A stretch of DNA of 32,000 bases from Verrucomicrobiota bacterium (GTDB taxonomy: Bacteria > Verrucomicrobiota > Verrucomicrobiia > Chthoniobacterales > UBA6821), in NCBI GenBank assembly GCA_008932965.1, contig WBXG01000006.1:1-32000 (forward strand). Reading direction: 5' to 3'. The position numbers were made by a program, and so were the translations under genes. Within the stretch, counting starts at the first letter, position 1. Each line of letters opens with the position of its first letter. The notes beneath the pieces are model-generated. The model was not told the DNA's origin, made no database searches, and saw nothing but the letters and a program-made list of their open reading frames with translations. This document shows, in pieces, positions 13,389 through 31,037 of this stretch.

Positions 13389-13404
13389 AAAAATTTTTGG
13401 GTTA

Positions 13405-13672
13405 ACCCGGATATTTCATACTGAATCGTCATGAGGCGCTGCGAATCCTGATGCAGACACCACCAGCGGTCGGGAGACCGCGGGGGAGACTGCCCTGGCT
13501 TTAAGGGGGCAGCACTGAAAGGGCGAGACGAGCGGGAGCAAGCGAGTCAACGAAGGTGATGGATTGTGACGACGGCTGTATGTTTCATACTGCCCGAGGA
13601 GCAATTCGAAGGTCAAGCAGTATCAATCAGGTGTTCGCAAGCCGCAGCAGAATCGGTATGAAATAGGCGGGT
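13405..13672 (+). mobile_element. MITE-like element, full 268-bp copy
   Basis: It is flanked by TA at 13403-13404 and 13673-13674, with termini acccggatatttcatactg ... ggtatgaaataggcgggt. It contains the 95-bp GC-rich internal module. The right-hand TA is part of the TAA stop of the minus-strand lipoprotein gene. Confidence 0.9.
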
Positions 13673-14496
13673 TAAGATTCTGGTGGTTCCAATAGCCTAA
13701 TTTTGGGATCGATCCAGCGGCTATCAGGAAAAATCAGGGGAGGAGTGGTAGTAACGAGGGTTGCTTTTTCTAAAACAAACTCAGGATAAAAAGAATCACT
13801 TGCTGGTTCATACACTTTCTCGCCGGAGAAGTGCCCCTCAAGTTGATACTCATAATTATTATCAGCTCCTATTTGATTTTTTTTTCGGTCAGGAGCTAGC
13901 ATTTTTTGCTCGTTGAACATGACTAATTGAGACCCTTTCCAAGGTTTGCTGGGCTCTTTTACCCAGCCCCACATATGATAGTCGACTTTATAAAAACGAC
14001 GTCCTATGAAGTAGTGACCTGGTGTTTCATTGGCAATGGCCCTCTTAATGGCAGTACGATCAGAGGCATTTTGCTCAACGATGGTTGTGCACCCAGAAAG
14101 AAATAGAAAAAAACCTAACAGTATCCCTAGCCCGAATATTTCATACTGATCGTGACGAGGAGGCCGCGAAAGCTGATGGGGCACCACCGGCGGTCGGGAG
14201 ACCGCGGGGGAGACTGCCCTGGCTTTAAGGGGGCAGCACTGAAAGGGCGAGACGAGCGGGAGCAAGCGAGTCAACGCAGACACATATTTTGACGCAGGGC
14301 TGTGTGTGTACACACTGCCCGAGGAAGACTTCGAGATCAACACAGCATCCATCTGACTTCCCGGTCTCCGCAGTAGATCAGAATGAAATATTTGGGCTAA
14401 AGCAACGAGGAATGGCTGTTGAAAGAATATTCTATCTTTAGAAATTCTTTTTTCATCATGATGACTCTGAGATCGCTCTCGTGGATGATCAGGCAT
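13672..14496 (-). CDS. Hypothetical lipoprotein with a MITE inserted in frame in its signal peptide (effective start uncertain)
   Basis: The ORF is open over 274 codons. A lipobox, LFLSGC, is followed by a 146-aa mature part. Codons 33-122 are the element (ALAQIFHSDLLRRPGSQMDAV...YEIFGL). Confidence 0.6.
   Translation of the reverse strand: MPDHPRERSQSHHDEKRISKDRIFFQQPFLVALAQIFHSDLLRRPGSQMDAVLISKSSSGSVYTHSPASKYVSALTRLLPLVSPFQCCPLKARAVSPAVSRPPVVPHQLSRPPRHDQYEIFGLGILLGFFLFLSGCTTIVEQNASDRTAIKRAIANETPGHYFIGRRFYKVDYHMWGWVKEPSKPWKGSQLVMFNEQKMLAPDRKKNQIGADNNYEYQLEGHFSGEKVYEPASDSFYPEFVLEKATLVTTTPPLIFPDSRWIDPKIRLLEPPES
14130..14397 (+). mobile_element. MITE-like element, full 268-bp copy, intragenic
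   Basis: It is flanked by TA at 14128-14129 and 14398-14399, with termini gcccgaatatttcatactgatc ... gatcagaatgaaatatttgggc. The internal GC-rich module lies at 14182-14276. Confidence 0.92.
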
Positions 14497-16804: not shown

Positions 16805-17383
16805 ATGATACGCTTTTTATTTTTTCGTAGGGGTCTTTTTGTAATTCTGCTGATATGCTTTGTTCATTGGAGCATGGGTGCAACAGCCTTGGAGGGAACA
16901 TCACCTCCTAGTGATCCCTTAAAACTAGGAATTGGGAGTAAGCCCCGACCCAAGAATGCACGAACTATTATCGATGCAGAAGAGGGAGCATGGTTTGATG
17001 ATTTAACCAATACCATTGAATTTAATGGGCATGTGGTTGTGCACGATCCGCAGTTTATCCTCTATTGCGACAAGTTGCATGTTGTGATGAATAAAAATCG
17101 CCAAGGCCTTCAGCAGGTTATCGCCACAGGCAATGTCATTATTGAACAAGAAAATACGAATGATCAAGGGGAGGCTATCAAATCCGTAGCACGTGCTGGC
17201 GAGGCTCTTTATGATCCCGCGACTGGCGATATGACACTGAAAATAGGACCTCAGATTCAACAAGGTCGAAGCTATCAAGTAGCAACAGAAGAGGGCACAG
17301 TGATGATTCTCAATAATAAGGGAACTTCAAGGACCATTGGAAAAAGTCGGGCTATGGTCGTCGACCCTGGCCAAACACCCTAG
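16805..17383 (+). CDS. lptA: LptA/OstA-family LPS transport periplasmic protein
   Basis: It has a signal peptide and an OstA N-terminal-like domain (F.G.V.V......L.CD.L.V......ATGNV.I) and lies upstream of lptB. Confidence 0.7.
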   Translation: MIRFLFFRRGLFVILLICFVHWSMGATALEGTSPPSDPLKLGIGSKPRPKNARTIIDAEEGAWFDDLTNTIEFNGHVVVHDPQFILYCDKLHVVMNKNRQGLQQVIATGNVIIEQENTNDQGEAIKSVARAGEALYDPATGDMTLKIGPQIQQGRSYQVATEEGTVMILNNKGTSRTIGKSRAMVVDPGQTP

Positions 17384-24103: not shown

Positions 24104-27100
24104 GTGAGTACTTCTCCACAACCTCTCTTTTTTGATTGGAAGAACCCCTGGCTACCGCCTCTTGCTACCTATTTGCTGCATACGTGGAATCAAGGAACAA
24201 GCGCTTCTCAAGAGGATCTTTCTTCAACTGTAGTTGTTCTTCCTGGTCGTCGTGCGGGAAGGAGGCTTTTAGAGTTATTGGCATTGGAAGCAGAGAAAGA
24301 GAAATGGAATTTGAATCCTCCTTCTATTGTGACACTACGCGAGGCGGTAACCCTACTGTTGAAACCAAGTGAAAAAACTCTTCCCGAAGCGAGTGGCGTA
24401 TTGCAGCGATTTGCCTGGCGTGAGGCTTTTCGAATGCTTCCGAAGTATCATCGAGATCATATTCAACCTTTTTCTAAGAAGGTCATTCCTCCAAGAAGTA
24501 GTGAGGTGTTGATTGGAATCATAGAATCACTTGCAGAAGAGATCGGAAGTAAGGGGCTTGATTTTCATACTGTGGCAGTTCGAGTGGGAGAGGTTTTTCC
24601 AGAATCTGCAGAACGAGAGCAACCTCGCTGGGAAGCACTTGCTTATCTTCAAAAAACCTACCGCAAGATGATGGCTTCATGGGGATATTCTGATCCTGCC
24701 GACTTTCTACGTTCTTCTCTCACCCATGGAGAAGTGTCCAAGGGTGTTCGAGTACTCGTAGCAGGAGTAGTGGAGGCTCCTCCACTTTTTGAATCTTTTT
24801 TTGAAAAAATAAAGCCCGCAGTGATTATTATTGCACCTAAGGAACATGCGGCAGGCTTTACCAATCATGGATTACTTGTGAAAGAATATTGGTTAGAGCA
24901 TCCACCAGTGATTCAAGATACAGAGCTCCTTCCATGCGAACGAAATGAAGATCAAGCAAAGGAGGTGGTTCGATTAATAACCCCTTTTAAGGATAGGAGA
25001 TCCGAGGTAACTGTTGCTCTCCCAGATTCCTCAACACTCCCCTTACTACAAACTCGGTTGGCACATGTAGGAGTTACAACTCGATGGGCAGGGGGGCTTC
25101 CTTTTCGTGGAGGACGTTTGTATCAACTCTTAAGAGCCATTGCTCATTTTTTAGATCATCACAACTATTCAGGACCAACAATAGCAGCTCTCAGTGCTCT
25201 TGTGCGCCATCCTGATATTTATCCCCATTGCATGGCACCAGAGGCATTTTTAAAAAAACTTGATCTTTTAGAACGTGAGCATCTCCCGCTCTTTTTAGAT
25301 AAGGGAAGTCTTGCTTCTTTCAAAAAAAATGAAGACCTCCTTCTCTGGATAGATGAACTTGAAACCCTCATTGGAATTGGGTCAGAGCCAGTATCGCTAG
25401 AGGAGGGAGCATCGAAATTACGAACTCTTTTGCAACATCTTTTCGGAAAACGGAAGGTACGGGGGAATACTTTTGAGGGGCATTATTTTTTAGGATGCCT
25501 CGAGGAATGCTTACACCTGCTAGATGAAATCGAAGAGATGGGTCCTCATATTTCTGAGCATTTTTCAATGAGTGCCTTTCTAGAAAATCTTCTGGAACTT
25601 CTTAAAGAAAAAAATATCCCAGAACAAGAAGAACCAGAAGCACTCGAATTACTTGGATGGCTAGAGTTGCAGGCTGATGATGCTCCCTATTGCATCATCA
25701 CTTCATGCCACGAAGGATCTTTTCCACAGAGTTTAACATCCAATCCTTTTTTGTCTCAGGGGCTTCGCTCACGTTTGGGTCTTAGTGAGGAGAGTTTGTT
25801 GCTCGCACGTGATCATTATCTTCTTCAAAGTATTATGGCTTCCCGCCAGGTTATCTTGATAGCACCTCGCTACAATGGTCGTGGAGAACCTGCTCGTCCT
25901 AGCCGTCTTTTAATGCTCGGATTGACTTTAGAGGAGTTGCCGCAACGGGTCCTCCAATTAACACAACCTCTCTTAGCCCCGATATTTCATACTGATCGTG
26001 ACGAAGAGACTGCGAAGGCTAATGGAGCGGGAGCGAGCGAGTCAACGCAGGCACGTATTTTGAAGCAGGGCTGTAGGAGTCTGACGCAGCATCCATCTGC
26101 CTTCTCGACCTCCGCAGGTGATCGGTATGAAATATCTGGGCTAAAAGAAGAAAAAATAAAGGAGCGAGCCCTCCCTCATCATGCTTCTCACTTTCATGCA
26201 CGACCTCTCGGTACAGAAAAGGTCACCTGTGTGACAGTGACAGGACTCCGGACCTATTTACAATCACCGCGACTTTTTTATCTCCAGCATGTCCTGCGAC
26301 TTCATGAAGTGGAGGAGGCTCCCCTAGAAATGAATGCTGGTCATTTTGGACGACTCATTCATGAGGTCTTAGGAGCTTTTGGGATGGAAGAAAAAAATAT
26401 CCCGTCAACCGATGCACGAACTTTATCAGAGTGGCTTCGAAGAAAACTTTTTTCTATAGCAGAGCACTATTTTGCTCCAGGACCCTCTCTTCCGATTCAA
26501 TTACAATTGGAGGCCATGGCGGAGACCTTAGATGGCTTTGCACAAGCTCAAGTAGCCCATTACCAGGAGGGATGGAGAATCATTGCAGCTGAAAACAACC
26601 ATTACTCTTCATCCCCAGTGATTGAGGAAAAAATGGCACTCGATGAGGGAGGCTCTCTTCTGTTACAGGGTCGCATTGATCGTATCGATTGGAATTACAA
26701 GCTGAGTCGCTGGATGATTATCGATTATAAAACACGGCACGATCAGGAATGGAGCAATGCCACCCCTGATAGAGAACATTTTCAAAAAAAAGGAGAAAAA
26801 ATTCTTTGGAAAGATCTTCAGCTTCCACTGTATTTAAGACTCTCTGCTCACTGGAAGGCGATTCAGGAATCAGGGCTTCCTGCTCCCACTATTGAGAATA
26901 CCGATCTGTGCTACTTTCAGTTACCCATAGAAACGGAGCAAGCAGGAGTGAGTGAACCATTTGATCCTAAGATGATCCTGCCTGGATGGAATGAAGCACG
27001 TCGTATTATGAAAGCGATCGTAGATGGAAATTTTGATGCACTTGGAACAATCGAAGCCATACGTATGCCTACCCTTGCTGCTCTCTGTGGAATTTCAATA

Positions 27101-27160
27101 CTAGAACCTAAAAAAAATGGGGTGATTCGCTCGGGGAGTGATTCAGAAACTATTGAGTGA
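24104..27160 (+). CDS. addB: AddB-like PD-(D/E)XK nuclease subunit carrying an in-frame MITE
   Basis: The 1018-aa product has a degenerate helicase-like N-terminal half and a C-terminal RecB-type nuclease motif, GRIDRID...IIDYKT. It overlaps the downstream UvrD/AddA-like gene by 4 nt (GTGA). Confidence 0.7.
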   Translation: MSTSPQPLFFDWKNPWLPPLATYLLHTWNQGTSASQEDLSSTVVVLPGRRAGRRLLELLALEAEKEKWNLNPPSIVTLREAVTLLLKPSEKTLPEASGVLQRFAWREAFRMLPKYHRDHIQPFSKKVIPPRSSEVLIGIIESLAEEIGSKGLDFHTVAVRVGEVFPESAEREQPRWEALAYLQKTYRKMMASWGYSDPADFLRSSLTHGEVSKGVRVLVAGVVEAPPLFESFFEKIKPAVIIIAPKEHAAGFTNHGLLVKEYWLEHPPVIQDTELLPCERNEDQAKEVVRLITPFKDRRSEVTVALPDSSTLPLLQTRLAHVGVTTRWAGGLPFRGGRLYQLLRAIAHFLDHHNYSGPTIAALSALVRHPDIYPHCMAPEAFLKKLDLLEREHLPLFLDKGSLASFKKNEDLLLWIDELETLIGIGSEPVSLEEGASKLRTLLQHLFGKRKVRGNTFEGHYFLGCLEECLHLLDEIEEMGPHISEHFSMSAFLENLLELLKEKNIPEQEEPEALELLGWLELQADDAPYCIITSCHEGSFPQSLTSNPFLSQGLRSRLGLSEESLLLARDHYLLQSIMASRQVILIAPRYNGRGEPARPSRLLMLGLTLEELPQRVLQLTQPLLAPIFHTDRDEETAKANGAGASESTQARILKQGCRSLTQHPSAFSTSAGDRYEISGLKEEKIKERALPHHASHFHARPLGTEKVTCVTVTGLRTYLQSPRLFYLQHVLRLHEVEEAPLEMNAGHFGRLIHEVLGAFGMEEKNIPSTDARTLSEWLRRKLFSIAEHYFAPGPSLPIQLQLEAMAETLDGFAQAQVAHYQEGWRIIAAENNHYSSSPVIEEKMALDEGGSLLLQGRIDRIDWNYKLSRWMIIDYKTRHDQEWSNATPDREHFQKKGEKILWKDLQLPLYLRLSAHWKAIQESGLPAPTIENTDLCYFQLPIETEQAGVSEPFDPKMILPGWNEARRIMKAIVDGNFDALGTIEAIRMPTLAALCGISILEPKKNGVIRSGSDSETIE
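25976..26141 (+). mobile_element. MITE-like element, 166-bp copy, intragenic (addB-like)
   Basis: It is flanked by TA at 25974-25975 and 26142-26143, with termini gccccgatatttcatactgatc ... gatcggtatgaaatatctgggc. It is translated in frame as APIFHTDRDEETAKANG...DRYEISGL. Confidence 0.92.
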
Positions 27161-30100
27161 TTATGCCTCTTTTTATTCAACGAGCTTCAGCGGGATCAGG
27201 TAAAACAGAGCAACTTGCACGCCGTTATTTGCAGATTCTTTTGAATAAAGATCTCATGGGCTATGAGGTCGATCCAGTTACAATTGTAGCAGCAACGTTT
27301 ACCCGGGAGGCTGCAGGAGAAATTTTAAATCGTATTTTGAAAATACTTTCGACCGCATGTCTGGATAGATCGGTCTGCCAAAGGATTGTCGAAGAGACAC
27401 CCCTCCCCGTCCCATCACCAATCGAATGCCAACGATTACTCCGACGACTCATGGAGCGCATCGATGAGCTTCGTATTGGAACCATCGATTCCCTTTTCGC
27501 TCAGCAAGCACGTGCTTTTGTATTGGATCTTGGAATAGCCCCTCATTGGGAAATTGCAGATAGTCTGACGGTCCATAAACTGGCCCAAAGAACCTTGCTT
27601 CATCTCTTGAAGTTAGATCCGCTCTTTGCACAAGATTGGAAGATTCTCCACCACTTTCAACGATCCCTTTCCTTGGTGAAAAAAGGGGCTCTTCTTCTTG
27701 AAAAAAATCGTTTTGTCGCACGTCATGAGCTACTCGAAACAACTCCAGAAAAAAAATCTCCTCCACGAAGGGTTTCAAGAGAAGACCAAACATCGATTCA
27801 TCACTTTTTTTCCTCATTTCATATTCCTCTTACTGGTCAGGGAAAACCGAATGGGCATTGGATTGCTGCTATAAAAAAAATAGAAGAGGCTTTTTCTCAA
27901 CCGCTCTATCTCAAGGATGTATTAGACCATAGTCCTCTTTTCTCTCAACTACTTCATGAGGAACCCCGTTTTTATGGAAAAGAAATACCACCAGAATTCA
28001 TTTATTTTTTTTCTCCGTTAATAGAAGCTTCACAAGCTGAACAACAACGCTTGGCCTTACTTCGAGAAGGAGCATTGCATCGGCTTGCACACGATTATCA
28101 CTATCTCCGAAGTGACTATTCCTTTGACGAAGGTCGCTACACTTTTCAAGAAATTGAAGAAATAGTAAGTCTCTCCTCCCAGAAAATATCTAAGGAGGAA
28201 ATCGAATTTCAGATGGACCTCTCTACGGAGCATCTCTTAATTGATGAATATCAGGATACCAGCGAGCGTCAGCATGCCTTTCTCTCTCCTTTGATTGGAG
28301 ATGTGCTCGCAAAGGGAGGGGTTGCCTTTGTGGTTGGAGATGTGAAGCAGGGAATTTATGGATGGCGTGGAGGAAAGCGGCATCTTCTAGGTTCTTTAGA
28401 AAAAGACTACGAATCCTATCTTCAAAAAACCAAGCTTCACCACACAAGTTATCGTTCTAGCCCTGCCATTCTAGCAGCAGTGAATCACGTTTTTGAGGCA
28501 CTCAAAAATTCAGATGTTGTTGAAGGAATGAACGCTGGAGAGCCATTTAAAGAAGCTGCAGCACGCTGGTCGCTTGAATTTGAACCCCAGGTATCAGCTA
28601 CTTCTGTTGTTGGCTTAAAAGGGAGTGTCACGCTTCACAAAATTCCAGTGGCTCCAGGAGAGCTTCAGAATGAGATCATGGAATTGGTTATTCAAAAAGT
28701 AGTGGAGCTAGTAGTAGCTCATCGACGAGAAGATCCATTACGTGAAATTGCAATTCTTGTGAGACGCACGAAATTTATTCCTTCTCTACTTTTGAACTTA
28801 CGAGAGAGTGGAATATTAGCAAGTGGAGAGGGAGGCAATCCACTCGCTGATACGTTGGCTGTTGAGGTGCTCCTCTCCCTACTCTCATGGATGGAGCATC
28901 CAGGAAATTCTGCAGCCTATGAACATGTACACTCATCCCCATTAGGAGATCTGTTAAAAGAACAGGGAGCTTCCCCCTCCACTCAAGGGGCTGCACTACG
29001 TGAACTACTAGTGGATCGGGGTTATGCAACATGCCTGCGTGCCTGGGCCACACGACCGGTTTTTCAAGAGGCATGCAGTGATTATGAAAAGGAACGCCTG
29101 GAACAATTCATAGCAATGGCTTCCCGCTTTGAATTGCTTGGTGGTGGGGCTCCCTCAGATCTTGTGGCACGGGCACGTGAGGAGCGCGTGGAGAGCCCTT
29201 TAAGTCGTGGAGTGAGGGTGCTTAGCATGCATGCTGCCAAGGGGCTCGAGTTTGAAAGTGTTGTTCTCATGGATCTCGACACCTCTATTTTTGGTGGGAG
29301 TGCCCATGCAATGCGTGTTCAAACAACAGATGATGGAAAATTCTTTATTCAGAATAATCGTGAAATGACCTTGCTACAAGGGAGAGAGCATTTATTAAAA
29401 ATCCATCAAGAGGAGCAATGGGAGGAGGCATTGAGCCTCCTTTATGTGGCGATGACACGAGCGATTTGCTTTTTAGATATTGTGCTCATGGACGATGTGA
29501 ACCGGAAAATTCCAAAAAAAAGCATGGCAGGATGGCTACGTGTCTCTGGGCTTGAAGACCATCAACATGATGGTCTTTCGTTACGCGAGCAAAGAACAAA
29601 AACAGCTCTAGCCCCCATATTTCATACCGATCTACTACGGAAGCCGGGAAGTCAGATGGATGCTGCGTTGAGCTCGAAGTCTTCCTCGGGCAGTAGGGAC
29701 TCATACAGCCCTGCGTCAAAATATGTGTCTGCGTTGACTTGCTCGCTCCCGCTCGTCTCGCCCTTTCAGGGCTGCCCCCTTAAAGCCAGGGCAGTCTCCA
29801 CCGCGGTCTCCCGACCGCCGGTGGTGCCCCATCAGCTTTCGCAGCCTCCTCTTCACGATCAGAATAAAATATGCGGGCTAGAAAGTAATAGTGATAAGAA
29901 AAAGCCGTGTTCGTTCGAGGTAACCTCACTTCAAAGGTCTCCACTATTGCTGAAGCGAACCCCCTCCAAAGAAAATCAAAAAGGGCTTCATGCGTTATCT
30001 GACTATTTTTATGATCGGAAAGCCCGTTCCTATGGAATCGTCCAGCATCGTGCACTAGCTCAGATAGAATGGATTAACAGGACTGCATCTCATCCATTGA

Positions 30101-30441
30101 ACGAAATACTAGAGAAGAAAGAAGATCATGCTGTTTTTGATGAGGAGTATTTTTTCTCTAAATGGAAAAAATGGGGAATTACCACATTGGAGGTCTGGAG
30201 GGAGCGGCGCTTTGCTGTGATTCAAAAAAACGAACTACTCGTAGGGACTTTTGATCGAGTTATTATAGGTTCCCTTGAAAAACCCATGGTGGCTGAAATC
30301 GTCGATTTTAAAACAGCTCCAGCCCAGGACAAAGAGCGACGTTGTCATCACTACGAGCTGCAGCTCGAGGAGTATCGAAAGGCTCTTCAACATTTGCTTC
30401 CAACATTAAGACACATTGAAACAAAAGTTGTTTGGATTTAA
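27157..30441 (+). CDS. addA: AddA-like UvrD-family helicase-nuclease carrying an in-frame MITE
   Basis: It has Walker A (ASAGSGKTEQL), DEYQDT, YRSSP, HAAKGLEFESVVL and LLYVAMTRA motifs, and a C-terminal nuclease motif GTFDRV...IVDFKT. Confidence 0.8.
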   Translation: MIMPLFIQRASAGSGKTEQLARRYLQILLNKDLMGYEVDPVTIVAATFTREAAGEILNRILKILSTACLDRSVCQRIVEETPLPVPSPIECQRLLRRLMERIDELRIGTIDSLFAQQARAFVLDLGIAPHWEIADSLTVHKLAQRTLLHLLKLDPLFAQDWKILHHFQRSLSLVKKGALLLEKNRFVARHELLETTPEKKSPPRRVSREDQTSIHHFFSSFHIPLTGQGKPNGHWIAAIKKIEEAFSQPLYLKDVLDHSPLFSQLLHEEPRFYGKEIPPEFIYFFSPLIEASQAEQQRLALLREGALHRLAHDYHYLRSDYSFDEGRYTFQEIEEIVSLSSQKISKEEIEFQMDLSTEHLLIDEYQDTSERQHAFLSPLIGDVLAKGGVAFVVGDVKQGIYGWRGGKRHLLGSLEKDYESYLQKTKLHHTSYRSSPAILAAVNHVFEALKNSDVVEGMNAGEPFKEAAARWSLEFEPQVSATSVVGLKGSVTLHKIPVAPGELQNEIMELVIQKVVELVVAHRREDPLREIAILVRRTKFIPSLLLNLRESGILASGEGGNPLADTLAVEVLLSLLSWMEHPGNSAAYEHVHSSPLGDLLKEQGASPSTQGAALRELLVDRGYATCLRAWATRPVFQEACSDYEKERLEQFIAMASRFELLGGGAPSDLVARAREERVESPLSRGVRVLSMHAAKGLEFESVVLMDLDTSIFGGSAHAMRVQTTDDGKFFIQNNREMTLLQGREHLLKIHQEEQWEEALSLLYVAMTRAICFLDIVLMDDVNRKIPKKSMAGWLRVSGLEDHQHDGLSLREQRTKTALAPIFHTDLLRKPGSQMDAALSSKSSSGSRDSYSPASKYVSALTCSLPLVSPFQGCPLKARAVSTAVSRPPVVPHQLSQPPLHDQNKICGLESNSDKKKPCSFEVTSLQRSPLLLKRTPSKENQKGLHALSDYFYDRKARSYGIVQHRALAQIEWINRTASHPLNEILEKKEDHAVFDEEYFFSKWKKWGITTLEVWRERRFAVIQKNELLVGTFDRVIIGSLEKPMVAEIVDFKTAPAQDKERRCHHYELQLEEYRKALQHLLPTLRHIETKVVWI
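29611..29878 (-). mobile_element. MITE-like element, full 268-bp copy, intragenic (addA-like)
   Basis: It is flanked by TA at 29609-29610 and 29879-29880, with termini gcccccatatttcataccgatc ... gatcagaataaaatatgcgggc. It contains the GC-rich module in reverse orientation. Confidence 0.92.
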
Positions 30442-30614
30442 CCCGCATATTTCATACCAATCACCTGTGGAGATCGGGTCAGATAGATGATGCGTTCATC
30501 TCAAAGTCTTCCTCAGGCAGTGTGTACACGCGCATATGTCGTCAGACTTCATCGCTCGTCTTGCCCTATCAGCCTCGAGACCTCCTAGTCACGATCAGTA
30601 TGAAATATCCTGGC
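30441..30614 (-). mobile_element. MITE-like element, 174-bp copy
   Basis: It is flanked by TA at 30439-30440 (the first two bases of the addA-like TAA stop) and 30615-30616, with termini acccgcatatttcatacc ... gatcagtatgaaatatcctggc. Confidence 0.88.
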
Positions 30615-30624
30615 TAACCCCAGA

Positions 30625-30870
30625 TTAAATTACATTACCTGGATCTAAGCCTACCTTGCCTGCATCAGCTACCTGCGTCTTACTCGAAATCGGCGATGCT
30701 GGTAATGATGATGCTATCCCACTTTCATTTATCTTACTTGGAGATGTTCCTGAAACTTGATTCGATGATGGTTGCAACCCATTCCCTTGAGCCGAAGAAG
30801 GAGTATTAGGGGAGGCTGCAGAAACCTCCATAGCACTTAGAGATACACTATTGTTTGGTATGTTATTCAT
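30625..30870 (-). CDS. Hypothetical 81-aa Ser/Pro/Asn-rich low-complexity protein
   Basis: The only evidence is an open frame with no recognisable domain. It is flanked on both sides by MITE copies. Confidence 0.35.
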   Translation of the reverse strand: MNNIPNNSVSLSAMEVSAASPNTPSSAQGNGLQPSSNQVSGTSPSKINESGIASSLPASPISSKTQVADAGKVGLDPGNVI

Positions 30871-31020: not shown

Positions 31021-31037
31021 TAGATTAAATTGCCCTC

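Follow-up and report, generated by a model that had tools for sequence, protein, structure and literature searches.

A probably translated MITE inserted in frame between the helicase and nuclease domains of an AddA-like protein in uncultured Chthoniobacterales

Selfish DNA that lies in frame in working genes has so far been regarded as an oddity confined for the most part to Rickettsia. The closest described case is that of the Rickettsia palindromic elements (RPEs; Ogata et al. 2000, 2002), which a later review (PMC10969869) presents as short palindromic selfish repeats often located in frame in unrelated housekeeping genes. Occasional in-frame fusions or C-terminal extensions are also produced by non-autonomous elements with terminal inverted repeats (TIRs), namely QMITE1/2 of Coxiella burnetii (PMC5896051) and the intragenic ERIC, large BOX elements and Anabaena MITEs (PMC10969869, PMC3184786), which abut or supply stop codons as well. 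The present analysis concerns a MITE located in an addA-like gene within a 32-kb stretch of verrucomicrobial DNA (32,000 nucleotides, hereafter the window), and the repeat family to which it belongs. Transposons of the IS630/Tc1-mariner type, from which some MITEs are derived, duplicate the dinucleotide TA, and IS630 prefers CTAG. Regarding the host protein, we know of no characterised AddA with a transposon-derived linker.

The architecture of the host locus is that of Bacillus subtilis AddAB (PDB 3U44/3U4Q/4CEH), with a UvrD-like motor and a C-terminal RecB-type nuclease in one protein and an adjoining AddB-like partner that has an inactivated helicase-like N-terminus and a nuclease of its own. 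The addA-like gene (27157–30441, forward strand; 1094 codons including the insert) encodes an SF1 UvrD-type helicase followed by a RecB-type PD-(D/E)XK nuclease, and is probably translated from the ATG at 27163 (MPLFIQRASAGSGKT); the orthologues begin with MPL. Pfam recognised UvrD-helicase, UvrD_C (ending at residue 769) and PDDEXK_1 (955–1080) in the protein, and all expected motifs are present: GSGKT, DEYQD, motif VI (LLYVAMTRA, 29437–29463, forward strand, residues 761–769, the final conserved element of the helicase ahead of the linker) and the nuclease catalytic motifs GTFDRV (residues 1030–1035), VDFKT (residues 1049–1053) and QLEEY, located at 30244–30375 on the forward strand, downstream of the insert. 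Among proteins of solved structure, B. subtilis AddA (3U44_A) was the best match. The top NCBIfam match was RecB-like helicase (190.5 against a cut-off of 650), and the equivalog cut-offs were reached neither for addA_alphas (159.6 vs 860.75 bits) nor for addA_Gpos (119.1 vs 707.65); because these scores lie far below the cut-offs, the gene is named "addA-like" here and its product is treated as a divergent AddA-like protein. The addB-like gene (24104–27160, forward strand) shares its last 4 bp with the start of addA. Its product combines an N-terminus of degenerate helicase-like type with a PD-(D/E)XK nuclease (residues 711–945), and matched TIGR02786 addB_alphas (E = 7e-20) and PDDEXK_1.

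The element in addA occupies positions 29609–29880 of the forward strand (272 bp with both flanking TA dinucleotides). It is a MITE, as the sequence-only reading had proposed: it has TIRs and TA flanks, is small and devoid of a transposase gene, and belongs to many dispersed copies. Its ends, TAGCCCCCATATTTCATACCGATC and GATCAGAATAAAATATGCGGGCTA, form 24-bp inverted repeats with TA outside each, and these repeats recur on all family copies. The left one (29609–29632 with its TA, forward strand) is translated as (L)APIFHTD and the right one (29857–29880 with its TA, forward strand) as HDQNKICGL, the latter with two changes relative to the family consensus GATCAGTATGAAATAT. The 49-nt element end found matches in 0 of 100 shuffles, which excludes chance. 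When the 182-bp family consensus was compared with this copy by blastn, solely positions 1–110 and 219–272 matched; the internal module of about 108 bp (29719–29826, forward strand), which contains G+C-rich hairpins and marks the 272-bp subfamily as against the 182-bp core family, is also present in the copies at 13458–13555 and 14182–14279. For the 272-nt element as RNA, a long hairpin is predicted, with a folding energy of -102.7 kcal/mol and z = -3.4; no shuffle was as good. Rfam gave no match in the whole window, Pfam assigned no family to the 90-residue insert peptide, and a promoter and terminator scan of 29300–30700 placed no site inside the element, the site counts being at shuffle level.

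The insertion adds a net 270 bp, or 90 codons (residues 818–907), between UvrD_C and PDDEXK_1, so the position after motif VI and before the nuclease that had been read from the letters stands. The reading frame continues without a stop through the element (..KTAL/APIFHTD...NKICGL/ESNSDKK..), with the junction peptides ..TKTALAPIFHTDLLR.. on the left and ..ICGLESNSDKK.. on the right; since the 270 bp include the duplicated TA and the interior is stop-free, the frame of addA is kept. The reconstructed empty site also agrees with the one deduced earlier (..GCT CTA GAA.., with TA at positions 2–3 of a Leu codon). Downstream of the element lies a part of the native linker (29881–30015, forward strand, residues 909–953), predicted to be unstructured and variable in sequence and length among orthologues. 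The companion element claimed for addB is equally real: a 170-bp in-frame MITE on the reverse strand (25974–26143; net 168 bp, that is, 56 codons, residues 624–680), translated as LAPIFHTDRDEETAKA...DRYEISGL and located a short way before PDDEXK_1 at residue 711. Two species have the addB site filled, and a single ancient insertion is unlikely to account for this, the two cores being of different recognisable subfamilies. The addA stop codon (TAA, 30439–30441) provided the TA for the insertion of a third member of the same family, 178 bp long (30439–30616, forward strand), which leaves the C-terminus ..VVWI unaltered; the orthologues also stop at ..VWI.

Comparison of the locus in related genomes demonstrated that the segment is an insertion. 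The collinear locus of a sister species (L001, about 85% DNA identity) is exactly 270 bp shorter at the insert point, the position of this gap having been read by hand because it had been misplaced by MAFFT, and in the orthologue alignment the segment is missing from all of the other, more distant orthologues, about 15–16 in number. The indel that the sequence-only reading expected from an orthologue alignment, 90 codons in length, was thus located, and the conservation in distant taxa that would have contradicted that reading was not seen. At the same time, the insert is fixed in its species, being present with an open frame in nine assemblies of at least 98% identity from different samples; insert-bearing proteins from NCBI metagenome-assembled genomes are KAB2644704.1 (100% identical to that of the window) and MDH4469632.1. 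In JGI metagenomes, no exact match to the empty-site allele as reconstructed was found, and hence there was no sign of within-species polymorphism. In a genome scan with an AddA pattern composed of generic UvrD motifs, one true relative (L005) was found among the matches listed, the others being unrelated helicases.

The family is dense in this genome. The window carries about 14 related copies, which make up about 6% of its bases; the closest paralogue of the addA copy (14128–14399, reverse strand) is full-length at 272 bp, 91.5% identical and open in the same frame, and a lipoprotein-like ORF carries it as a fusion at the 5' end. TIR matches numbered 390 in 785 kb of related contigs, from which 131 paired copies were taken for the family statistics. 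The copies fall into size classes of 182 and 272–280 bp, the majority being shorter than 300 bp, and their ends have the terminal sequence TAGCCCGGATATTTCATACTGATC. TA was present on both sides in 112 of the 131 paired copies, and Y-TA-R flanks in 97–98% of the 131 vs 26% of background TA sites. In a strain that is 99% identical to the window (L004), a 182-bp copy with TA on both sides is present where the window is empty (position 31022), which shows recent activity and TA duplication. The flanks of this polymorphic insertion, TTAA to the left and TTAG to the right, agree with a TA duplication of 2 bp and not with one of 4 bp. Among the 112 copies, identical YTAR tetramers flank 65, of which 57 are palindromic and fit the 2-bp and 4-bp models alike and 8 fit only 4 bp, while 27 copies fit only TA, so that the copies taken together allow a target-site duplication of either length. 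The family resembles IS630/Tc1-mariner-derived MITEs in the TA at every well-preserved copy, in the YTAR target, CTAG included, and in a polymorphism fitting a 2-bp TA duplication, but differs from them in that no matching transposase was found in the loci examined and that part of the data also fits an IS5-type 4-bp YTAR duplication. No transposase or full-length IS matching the family was present in the loci examined; TIR pairs 0.7–2.5 kb apart in related loci enclosed ordinary genes between two separate MITEs and no autonomous element, and a TIR scan of viral contigs found none.

The preservation of the addA frame and the Leu codon at the insertion point are properties of the family rather than of addAB. 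With TA at codon positions 1–2, TAG or TAA is met at the start of every copy tested, and with TA at positions 3–1, TGA is met in the consensus TIR; the only open phase of the tested copies is that with TA at positions 2–3. Accordingly, two of the six frames of the 182-bp consensus are open, this phase once per orientation, and since the target is YTAR and the TIRs are stop-free only in this phase, the insertion codon is always YTA, that is, Leu. Together with a length of 3n+2, these features account for the regularity. Among the 131 paired copies, 23 (18%) are in frame, with the ORF staying open over 60 codons or more to either side, and every one of the 23 has TA at positions 2–3 and a length that, less 2, is divisible by 3. 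The hosts in which Pfam domains were recognised on both sides of the insert include GcvP (in two genomes), IspD, RNase HII, a MacB/FtsX permease, a deacetylase-GT2 protein and a phosphodiesterase-TPR-sulfotransferase protein. Family copies were also found at different sites in an AddB (L099/P0166) and in an AddA (L085/P0007), the latter site being empty in the sister P0006. A search with the 90-residue peptide returned 26 short "hypothetical proteins" on intergenic copies, AddA not being among them, and is not a census of in-frame insertions. Open-frame copies were more numerous than after shuffling (50 observed vs 17), an excess inflated by shared descent; for the same reason, the use of 3n+2 lengths and open frames as formal proof of selection was abandoned, and they are retained as a property of the consensus. 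The frame of the addA copy remained open 41–71% of the time under 9–25 random substitutions, so that the open frame of a single copy is by itself no proof of selection.

The reality of the insertion and the state of the host genes bear on two alternatives. A repeat spliced into addA during the building of a metagenome-assembled genome has a precedent in this very family, because a 3.4-kb contig (P0155) is chimeric and joins addA via the MITE to the lipoprotein gene following the 14128–14399 paralogue; such an artefact is nevertheless vanishingly improbable here, given the same junctions on both sides in nine other assemblies from JGI, ENA and NCBI, obtained from different samples with different pipelines and in contigs of up to 44 kb, and given junction sequences in L004 equal to those of the window. 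It is extremely unlikely, too, that addA and addB are decaying pseudogenes whose open frame is a leftover, although the genome is riddled with repeats and the helicase part showed a within-lineage omega of 0.38. This value comes from a comparison within the insert-bearing lineage, based on 8–17 substitutions, in which the part upstream of the insert gave 0.38 and the part downstream of it 0.17. Over hundreds of substitutions relative to the sister species L001, the dN/dS values were 0.17 for addA and 0.22 for addB, similar to the neighbouring housekeeping genes (0.145 and 0.136); addA retains every catalytic motif and all positions that are invariant among the aligned orthologues, stops and frameshifts are absent from the nine assemblies, and the nuclease part beyond the insert is under purifying selection. 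Relaxed dN/dS, which the sequence-only reading had named as a sign of decay, is thus not the condition of these genes. The insert itself behaves differently: within the lineage it showed 9 nucleotide differences in 270 (3.3%) vs 25 in 3009 (0.83%) for the remaining gene (p = 0.0013), eight of them nonsynonymous and one synonymous, and 8 variable residue columns out of 90 vs 15 out of 1002 elsewhere, and its divergence did not differ from the host synonymous rate (p = 0.14). Judged by these substitutions, the insert is unconstrained, its rate of evolution being close to neutral or above it.

The same data bear on the choice, left between two options by the sequence-only reading, of an unusually permissive linker or a co-opted peptide. 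Co-option would mean that the peptide serves AddAB, for example through a tuned tether length, as a surface for interactions or as a regulatory region that the AddB insert shares, and the presence of a family member a short way before the nuclease domain in both subunits, the fixed and open state of the insert across nine assemblies and the filling of the addB site in two species could be taken to suggest it. It is, however, very unlikely, because the insert is missing in the 85%-identical sister species and in all other orthologues, evolves about four times faster than the remaining gene with its excess of nonsynonymous changes, and is predicted to be disordered; moreover, the AddA and AddB peptides derive from opposite orientations and share only the TIR-encoded ends, and the same peptides also occur in unrelated enzymes. 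In an AF2 model of AddA, residues 818–953 had a pLDDT of about 25 (below 50) and no secondary structure, the low confidence over the insert being partly expected, as only 2 of the 18 aligned sequences carry it. In the orthologues P0012 and P0005, unrelated indels occur in or adjoining the linker stretch (alignment columns of about 1000–1140). On the basis of the predicted disorder, the orthologue indels and the drift of the insert, a permissive linker is favoured, and co-option is left without support. Transcribed Correia elements of Neisseria are reported to be processed by RNase III, and it is conceivable, if unlikely, that the main effect of the addA copy is likewise exerted at the RNA level, besides translation, its strong predicted 272-nt hairpin slowing translation or attracting RNase III and thereby shifting the helicase-to-nuclease ratio or the amount of AddA. 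The element, on the other hand, lacks promoter-like and terminator-like sites, and the domain downstream is under purifying selection, which implies that the element is read through.

We consider it highly probable that a non-autonomous TIR transposon, a MITE, was recently inserted and is tolerated by the host, which probably translates it. The element would have been mobilised in trans by a transposase, perhaps of the IS630/Tc1-mariner or the IS5 type, and would have landed in a CTAG of the addA linker, with TA as bases 2–3 of a CTA (Leu) codon. As its TIRs carry stops in two of the three phases, read-through would be obtained solely with TA at codon positions 2–3. The protein would thereby gain about 90 Ser/Pro-rich, probably disordered residues that lengthen an unstructured helicase–nuclease tether of about 46 residues, and AddA would still be functional. 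The insert peptide would have no function of its own and would drift neutrally, with selection acting only against stops and frameshifts. That both addA and addB were hit would be due to a family that is very dense, compatible with coding in both orientations and able to survive in the flexible linkers of long multidomain proteins.

Comparison with the described systems places this family beside the RPEs without filing it among them; it seems to work like RPEs. As with RPEs, a family-specific peptide is added and the protein is not destroyed, 18% of the sampled copies here being in frame in hosts that include core enzymes. Unlike RPEs, the family occurs in an unrelated phylum (Verrucomicrobia, Chthoniobacterales, known from metagenome assemblies), the repeat sequences being probably unrelated, and it is distinguished by clear 24-bp TIRs, a YTAR target, TA duplication, open frames in both orientations and mobility between 99%-identical strains. 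With QMITE1/2, ERIC, BOX and the Anabaena MITEs, the family shares the non-autonomous TIR structure, the in-frame fusions and the contact with stop codons, in the present case that of addA, located in the TA of the next MITE. In those elements the in-frame cases are occasional, whereas here the consensus is open in the sole phase allowed by the TIRs, in both orientations and with a length of 3n+2, and the insertions reach the middle of essential multidomain enzymes.

A second, probably unrelated family in another phylum thus shows the same behaviour as RPEs, and because it has, unlike them, the hallmarks of a transposon and ongoing mobility, selection for translatability becomes testable. Whether the family is an independent, still-active analogue of RPEs in uncultured freshwater Verrucomicrobia, an element selected to be translatable (stop-free in both orientations, 3n+2 in length, with YTAR giving Leu) that colonises coding sequence and yields disordered linkers for AddA, AddB, GcvP and IspD as a by-product, is a proposal to which we give even odds. 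For annotation, it matters that in metagenome assemblies such repeats give rise to small ORFs that are spurious and to contigs that are chimeric. The family also amounts to natural insertion scans of essential enzymes, from which the tether between motor and nuclease in AddAB would appear to tolerate a tripling of its length.

The addA-like gene (ORF 27157-30441, 1094 residues) was placed in the Verrucomicrobia, order Chthoniobacterales, by a search of 5.8 billion proteins, and its product is 100% identical to KAB2644704.1, an NCBI entry from a "Verrucomicrobia bacterium" MAG. The protein carries Walker A (GSGKT), DEYQD and motif VI (LLYVAMTRA, aa 761-769), followed by the RecB-type nuclease motifs GTFDRV, VDFKT and QLEEY (aa 1030-1073), and its nearest solved structure is B. 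subtilis AddA. The designation "addA-like" was retained because the score lies far beneath the NCBIfam equivalog cut-offs. Pfam assigned UvrD-helicase and UvrD_C, ending at residue 769, and PDDEXK_1 at residues 955-1080, so that the insert, at aa 818-907, does lie between helicase and nuclease, as had been read from the motifs. In the upstream addB-like gene (ORF 24104-27160), the only recognisable domain is a PD-(D/E)XK nuclease (aa 711-945).

The element at 29609-29880 runs TAGCCCCCATATTTCATACCGATC ... GATCAGAATAAAATATGCGGGCTA; its 24-nt ends are mutually inverted repeats, with TA as the outermost dinucleotide on both sides. It corresponds to a 182-bp-type element enlarged internally by a module of approximately 108 bp. 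A 49-nt probe of the left end gave no chance matches in 100 shuffles, and blastn with a tolerant end search found about 14 family copies in the 32-kb window, occupying about 6% of its bases. These include one at 14128-14399 that spans the full 272 bp and lies on the strand opposite to the addA copy (91.5% identity), a copy at 13403-13674 (79% identical to the addA copy), a 170-bp copy within addB at 25974-26143, and a 178-bp copy at 30439-30616. The RNA of the addA element is predicted to form a single long hairpin (-102.7 kcal/mol, z = -3.4); the element matched no Rfam family, and its peptide no Pfam family. The 272-bp paralogue would itself be read through in the same frame by ORF 13672-14496 (-), as a putative third read-through copy in the window; past the element, this ORF, without a Pfam match, encodes ..GILLGFFLFLSGCTT.., which resembles a putative lipoprotein signal peptide with a lipobox. 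A repeat at 1777-1896, between ORFs 145-1725 and 1972-2970, is unrelated to the MITE family and consists of a tandem pair of 55-nt units (85% identical, spacing 65 nt), each enclosed by a G+C-rich inverted repeat (AACGGGCCGCTG...CAGCGGCCCG).

In an alignment of 18 sequences, the 90-residue insert occurred only in the window protein and the 98%-identical P0001, and was missing from P0002 (85-87% identical, 1003 aa) and 15 remoter orthologues; the anticipated indel was thus found, with the distant orthologues free of the segment. The sister-species locus L001 reads GATGGTCTTTCC...AGATCTCAAGGAAGC...AAAAAGCCGTGTTCG, and the window minus the element and one TA reads GATGGTCTTTCG...ACAGCTCTAGAAAGT...AAAAAGCCGTGTTCG (junction compared by hand; MAFFT misplaced the gap). 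As the two match in length, the insert accounts for exactly 270 bp, the 90 codons originally counted. The frame across the insert is likewise open in nine further same-species assemblies from JGI, ENA and NCBI (contigs of up to 44 kb), and an exact-match search of JGI metagenomes returned no empty allele. Because L001 is empty and these nine assemblies are filled, the insertion postdates the divergence from the sister species and has become fixed in the population sampled. The tenth cluster member, P0155 (ENA, 3454-bp contig), has a chimeric gene model, following AddA as far as the MITE and continuing with the lipoprotein ORF located after the paralogous copy at 14128-14399. Short-read assembly most likely mis-joined the two repeats, which are 91% identical, and MAGs of this Chthoniobacterales clade call for caution.

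The conserved position of TA within the target codon could be traced to the element. When eight window copies were translated in six frames, TA at codon positions 1-2 made the element open with TAG or TAA, T at position 3 gave ..TAC TGA.. at the consensus end, and TA at positions 2-3 alone left the ends free of stops. In this permitted phase, the entry peptide is (L)A/T-R/P-I-F-H-T-D and the exit D-Q/R-Y-E-I-S-G-L; an in-phase exit requires that the length minus 2 be divisible by 3, which is true for the 272-, 182- and 170-bp forms. Among the 131 paired copies in the matches listed, Y occupied position -1 in 98% and R position +1 in 97%, which defines the target as YTAR, a class comprising 26% of background TA sites. 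The target codon in the permitted phase is therefore YTA, that is, Leu. The Leu codon noted in both addA and addB is real, and this regularity is a property of the element, following from the YTAR target and the sole stop-free phase.

A conserved-end scan of JGI metagenome contigs yielded at least 87 loci, and these together with related loci (785 kb) contained at least 390 end matches and at least 131 paired elements. The dominant length was 182 bp (at least 32 copies), with a second class of 272-280 bp. Two of the six frames of the 182-bp consensus are open, namely those with TA at positions 2-3 in either orientation, giving the peptide types ..IFHTDLLRRPGSQMDAAL..SQPPRHDQYEISGL and ..IFHTDRDEEAAKADG..STQHPSGFPASAVDQYEISGL. 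Among the matches listed, 23 of 131 copies (18%) lay within frames that continued uninterrupted for 60 codons or more on each side; all 23 had TA as codon positions 2-3 and were 3n+2 in length. Pfam domains flank the insert in glycine dehydrogenase GcvP (two genomes), IspD, RNase HII, a MacB/FtsX permease, a polysaccharide deacetylase-GT2 protein and a phosphodiesterase-TPR-sulfotransferase; in SBP_bac_5, HAD and BPD_transp_2 permease ORFs the element precedes the recognised domain and may lie outside the true coding region. The permitted frame was open in 50 non-ORF copies among the matches listed, against 17 expected with shuffled cores, an excess that, given the shared descent of the copies, is credited to the source sequence alone. 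The family was missing around addA in two other lineages of the clade (L087, L005) and from unrelated controls, its taxonomic spread being judged from the loci covered here. The two gcvP elements, from two metagenome genomes, occupy one shared position between the P-protein halves and differ in length (L131 1891-2105, 215 bp; L141 4333-4616, 284 bp). A 1050-codon ORF without a Pfam match, L143 5323-8472 (-), carries two in-frame copies of 278 and 182 bp.

Very recent mobility and TA duplication are evident from a 182-bp copy at 4651-4832 of L004, a locus 99% identical to the window, where it is missing at 31022. The copy lies between two TA, the empty site being GGGTTAGATT, and sits in the terminal TA of an older copy, so that elements nest end to end. 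Among the matches listed, target tetramers were TTAA 50, CTAA 20, CTAG 20 and TTAG 19 (131 paired copies from the window and loci L001-L167), and the end tetramers of 112 copies fitted both duplication models in 57 cases, TA only in 27 and only 4 bp in 8. Since these counts leave some room for a 4-bp duplication, IS630-like and IS5-like families are both kept as candidate parents; no autonomous copy or transposase was found between end pairs 0.7-2.5 kb apart in the loci examined. The flanking base equals the element's own terminal base in 75-77% of the 131 paired copies among the matches listed (chance expectation about 50%), a correlation not fully explained by any simple 2-bp or 4-bp duplication model. 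The copy at 30439-30616 begins within the addA stop codon, whose TA holds the element with the C-terminus ..VWI unaltered; a MITE of a different subfamily occupies the same place in L001 (13010-13191), and the termination codons of two further ORFs, 16805-17383 and 13672-14496 (-), likewise overlap MITE ends. YTAR-compatible TAA and TAG stops seem to be preferred insertion sites.

Decay of the host genes into pseudogenes was considered and rejected, the addA nuclease domain downstream of the element being under purifying selection, which implies that ribosomes would traverse the element. Nei-Gojobori omega against L001 was 0.17 for addA (helicase 0.15, nuclease 0.18, aligned linker 0.29) and 0.22 for addB, compared with 0.145 and 0.136 for two neighbouring housekeeping genes; within the insert-bearing lineage (window against L004), the addA values were 0.38 on the upstream and 0.17 on the downstream side of the insert, with few substitutions. 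Between window and L004, the insert differed at 9 of 270 nt versus 25 of 3009 in the remaining gene (Fisher p = 0.0013); of these nine changes, eight were nonsynonymous, and the divergence of the insert did not differ from the synonymous divergence of the gene (p = 0.14). In a comparison of nine sequences, variation affected 8 of the 90 insert columns versus 15 of 1002 elsewhere. The insert peptide is Ser/Pro-rich (16 S and 11 P per 90 residues). AlphaFold2, run on the orthologue alignment, modelled both flanking domains and left residues 818-953 (the insert and the following 46 native residues) without secondary structure, at a pLDDT of about 25, low confidence over the insert being expected regardless with just two aligned sequences containing it. 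Unrelated indels occur within or beside this stretch in P0012 and P0005. The sequence-only reading had offered either a permissive linker or co-option of the peptide; insert drift, predicted disorder and unrelated indels favour the former and co-option found no support. The insert peptide is unconstrained and its stretch fits a permissive tether.

The presence of elements in both subunits does not require a functional link. Copy density in the window is about one per 2.3 kb, one third of random YTAR insertions of the 182-bp form are compatible with read-through (both orientations, one phase in three), and addA and addB make up one fifth of the window, each with a long unstructured segment ahead of the nuclease domain; that two hits survive is thus no surprise. 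The AddA and AddB insert peptides derive from opposite orientations of the element and have in common only the residues encoded by the ends. In other lineages, both subunits carry copies at different positions: a 182-bp copy lies directly past the DFK nuclease motif in one AddA (P0007/L085), its sister P0006 being empty there, and an AddB (P0166/L099) has a copy near residue 150. The addB site is filled at the same TA in the window (25974-26143) and the 85%-identical L001 (8806-8987), ..CCTCTCTTA|..|AAAGAAG.., both elements being in frame with only the ends in common; as the cores (RDEETAKA.. vs SAAACEHL..) belong to different subfamilies, this points either to separate insertions at a single permissive site or to one element having replaced the other. 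Another repeat-like peptide, ..DCV.PNVIPAEAGIASSSTS..APS.SSASA.., unrelated to this family, occurs in frame at differing positions in AddA (P0005) and AddB (P0165, P0167, P0169) of other Chthoniobacterales MAGs, and suggests another possible coding-compatible repeat family in this clade.

MITEs in frame are already documented. Coxiella QMITE copies abut stop codons or lengthen ORFs (PMC5896051). Full-text literature with coverage of few subscription journals gave no account of elements like these in Verrucomicrobia or Chthoniobacterales. Like the Rickettsia palindromic elements (RPEs), this family is often in frame in unrelated core genes. Unlike RPEs, it resides in a different host phylum, has clear terminal inverted repeats, inserts at a defined YTAR target with duplication of TA, is open in both orientations, and is mobile now.
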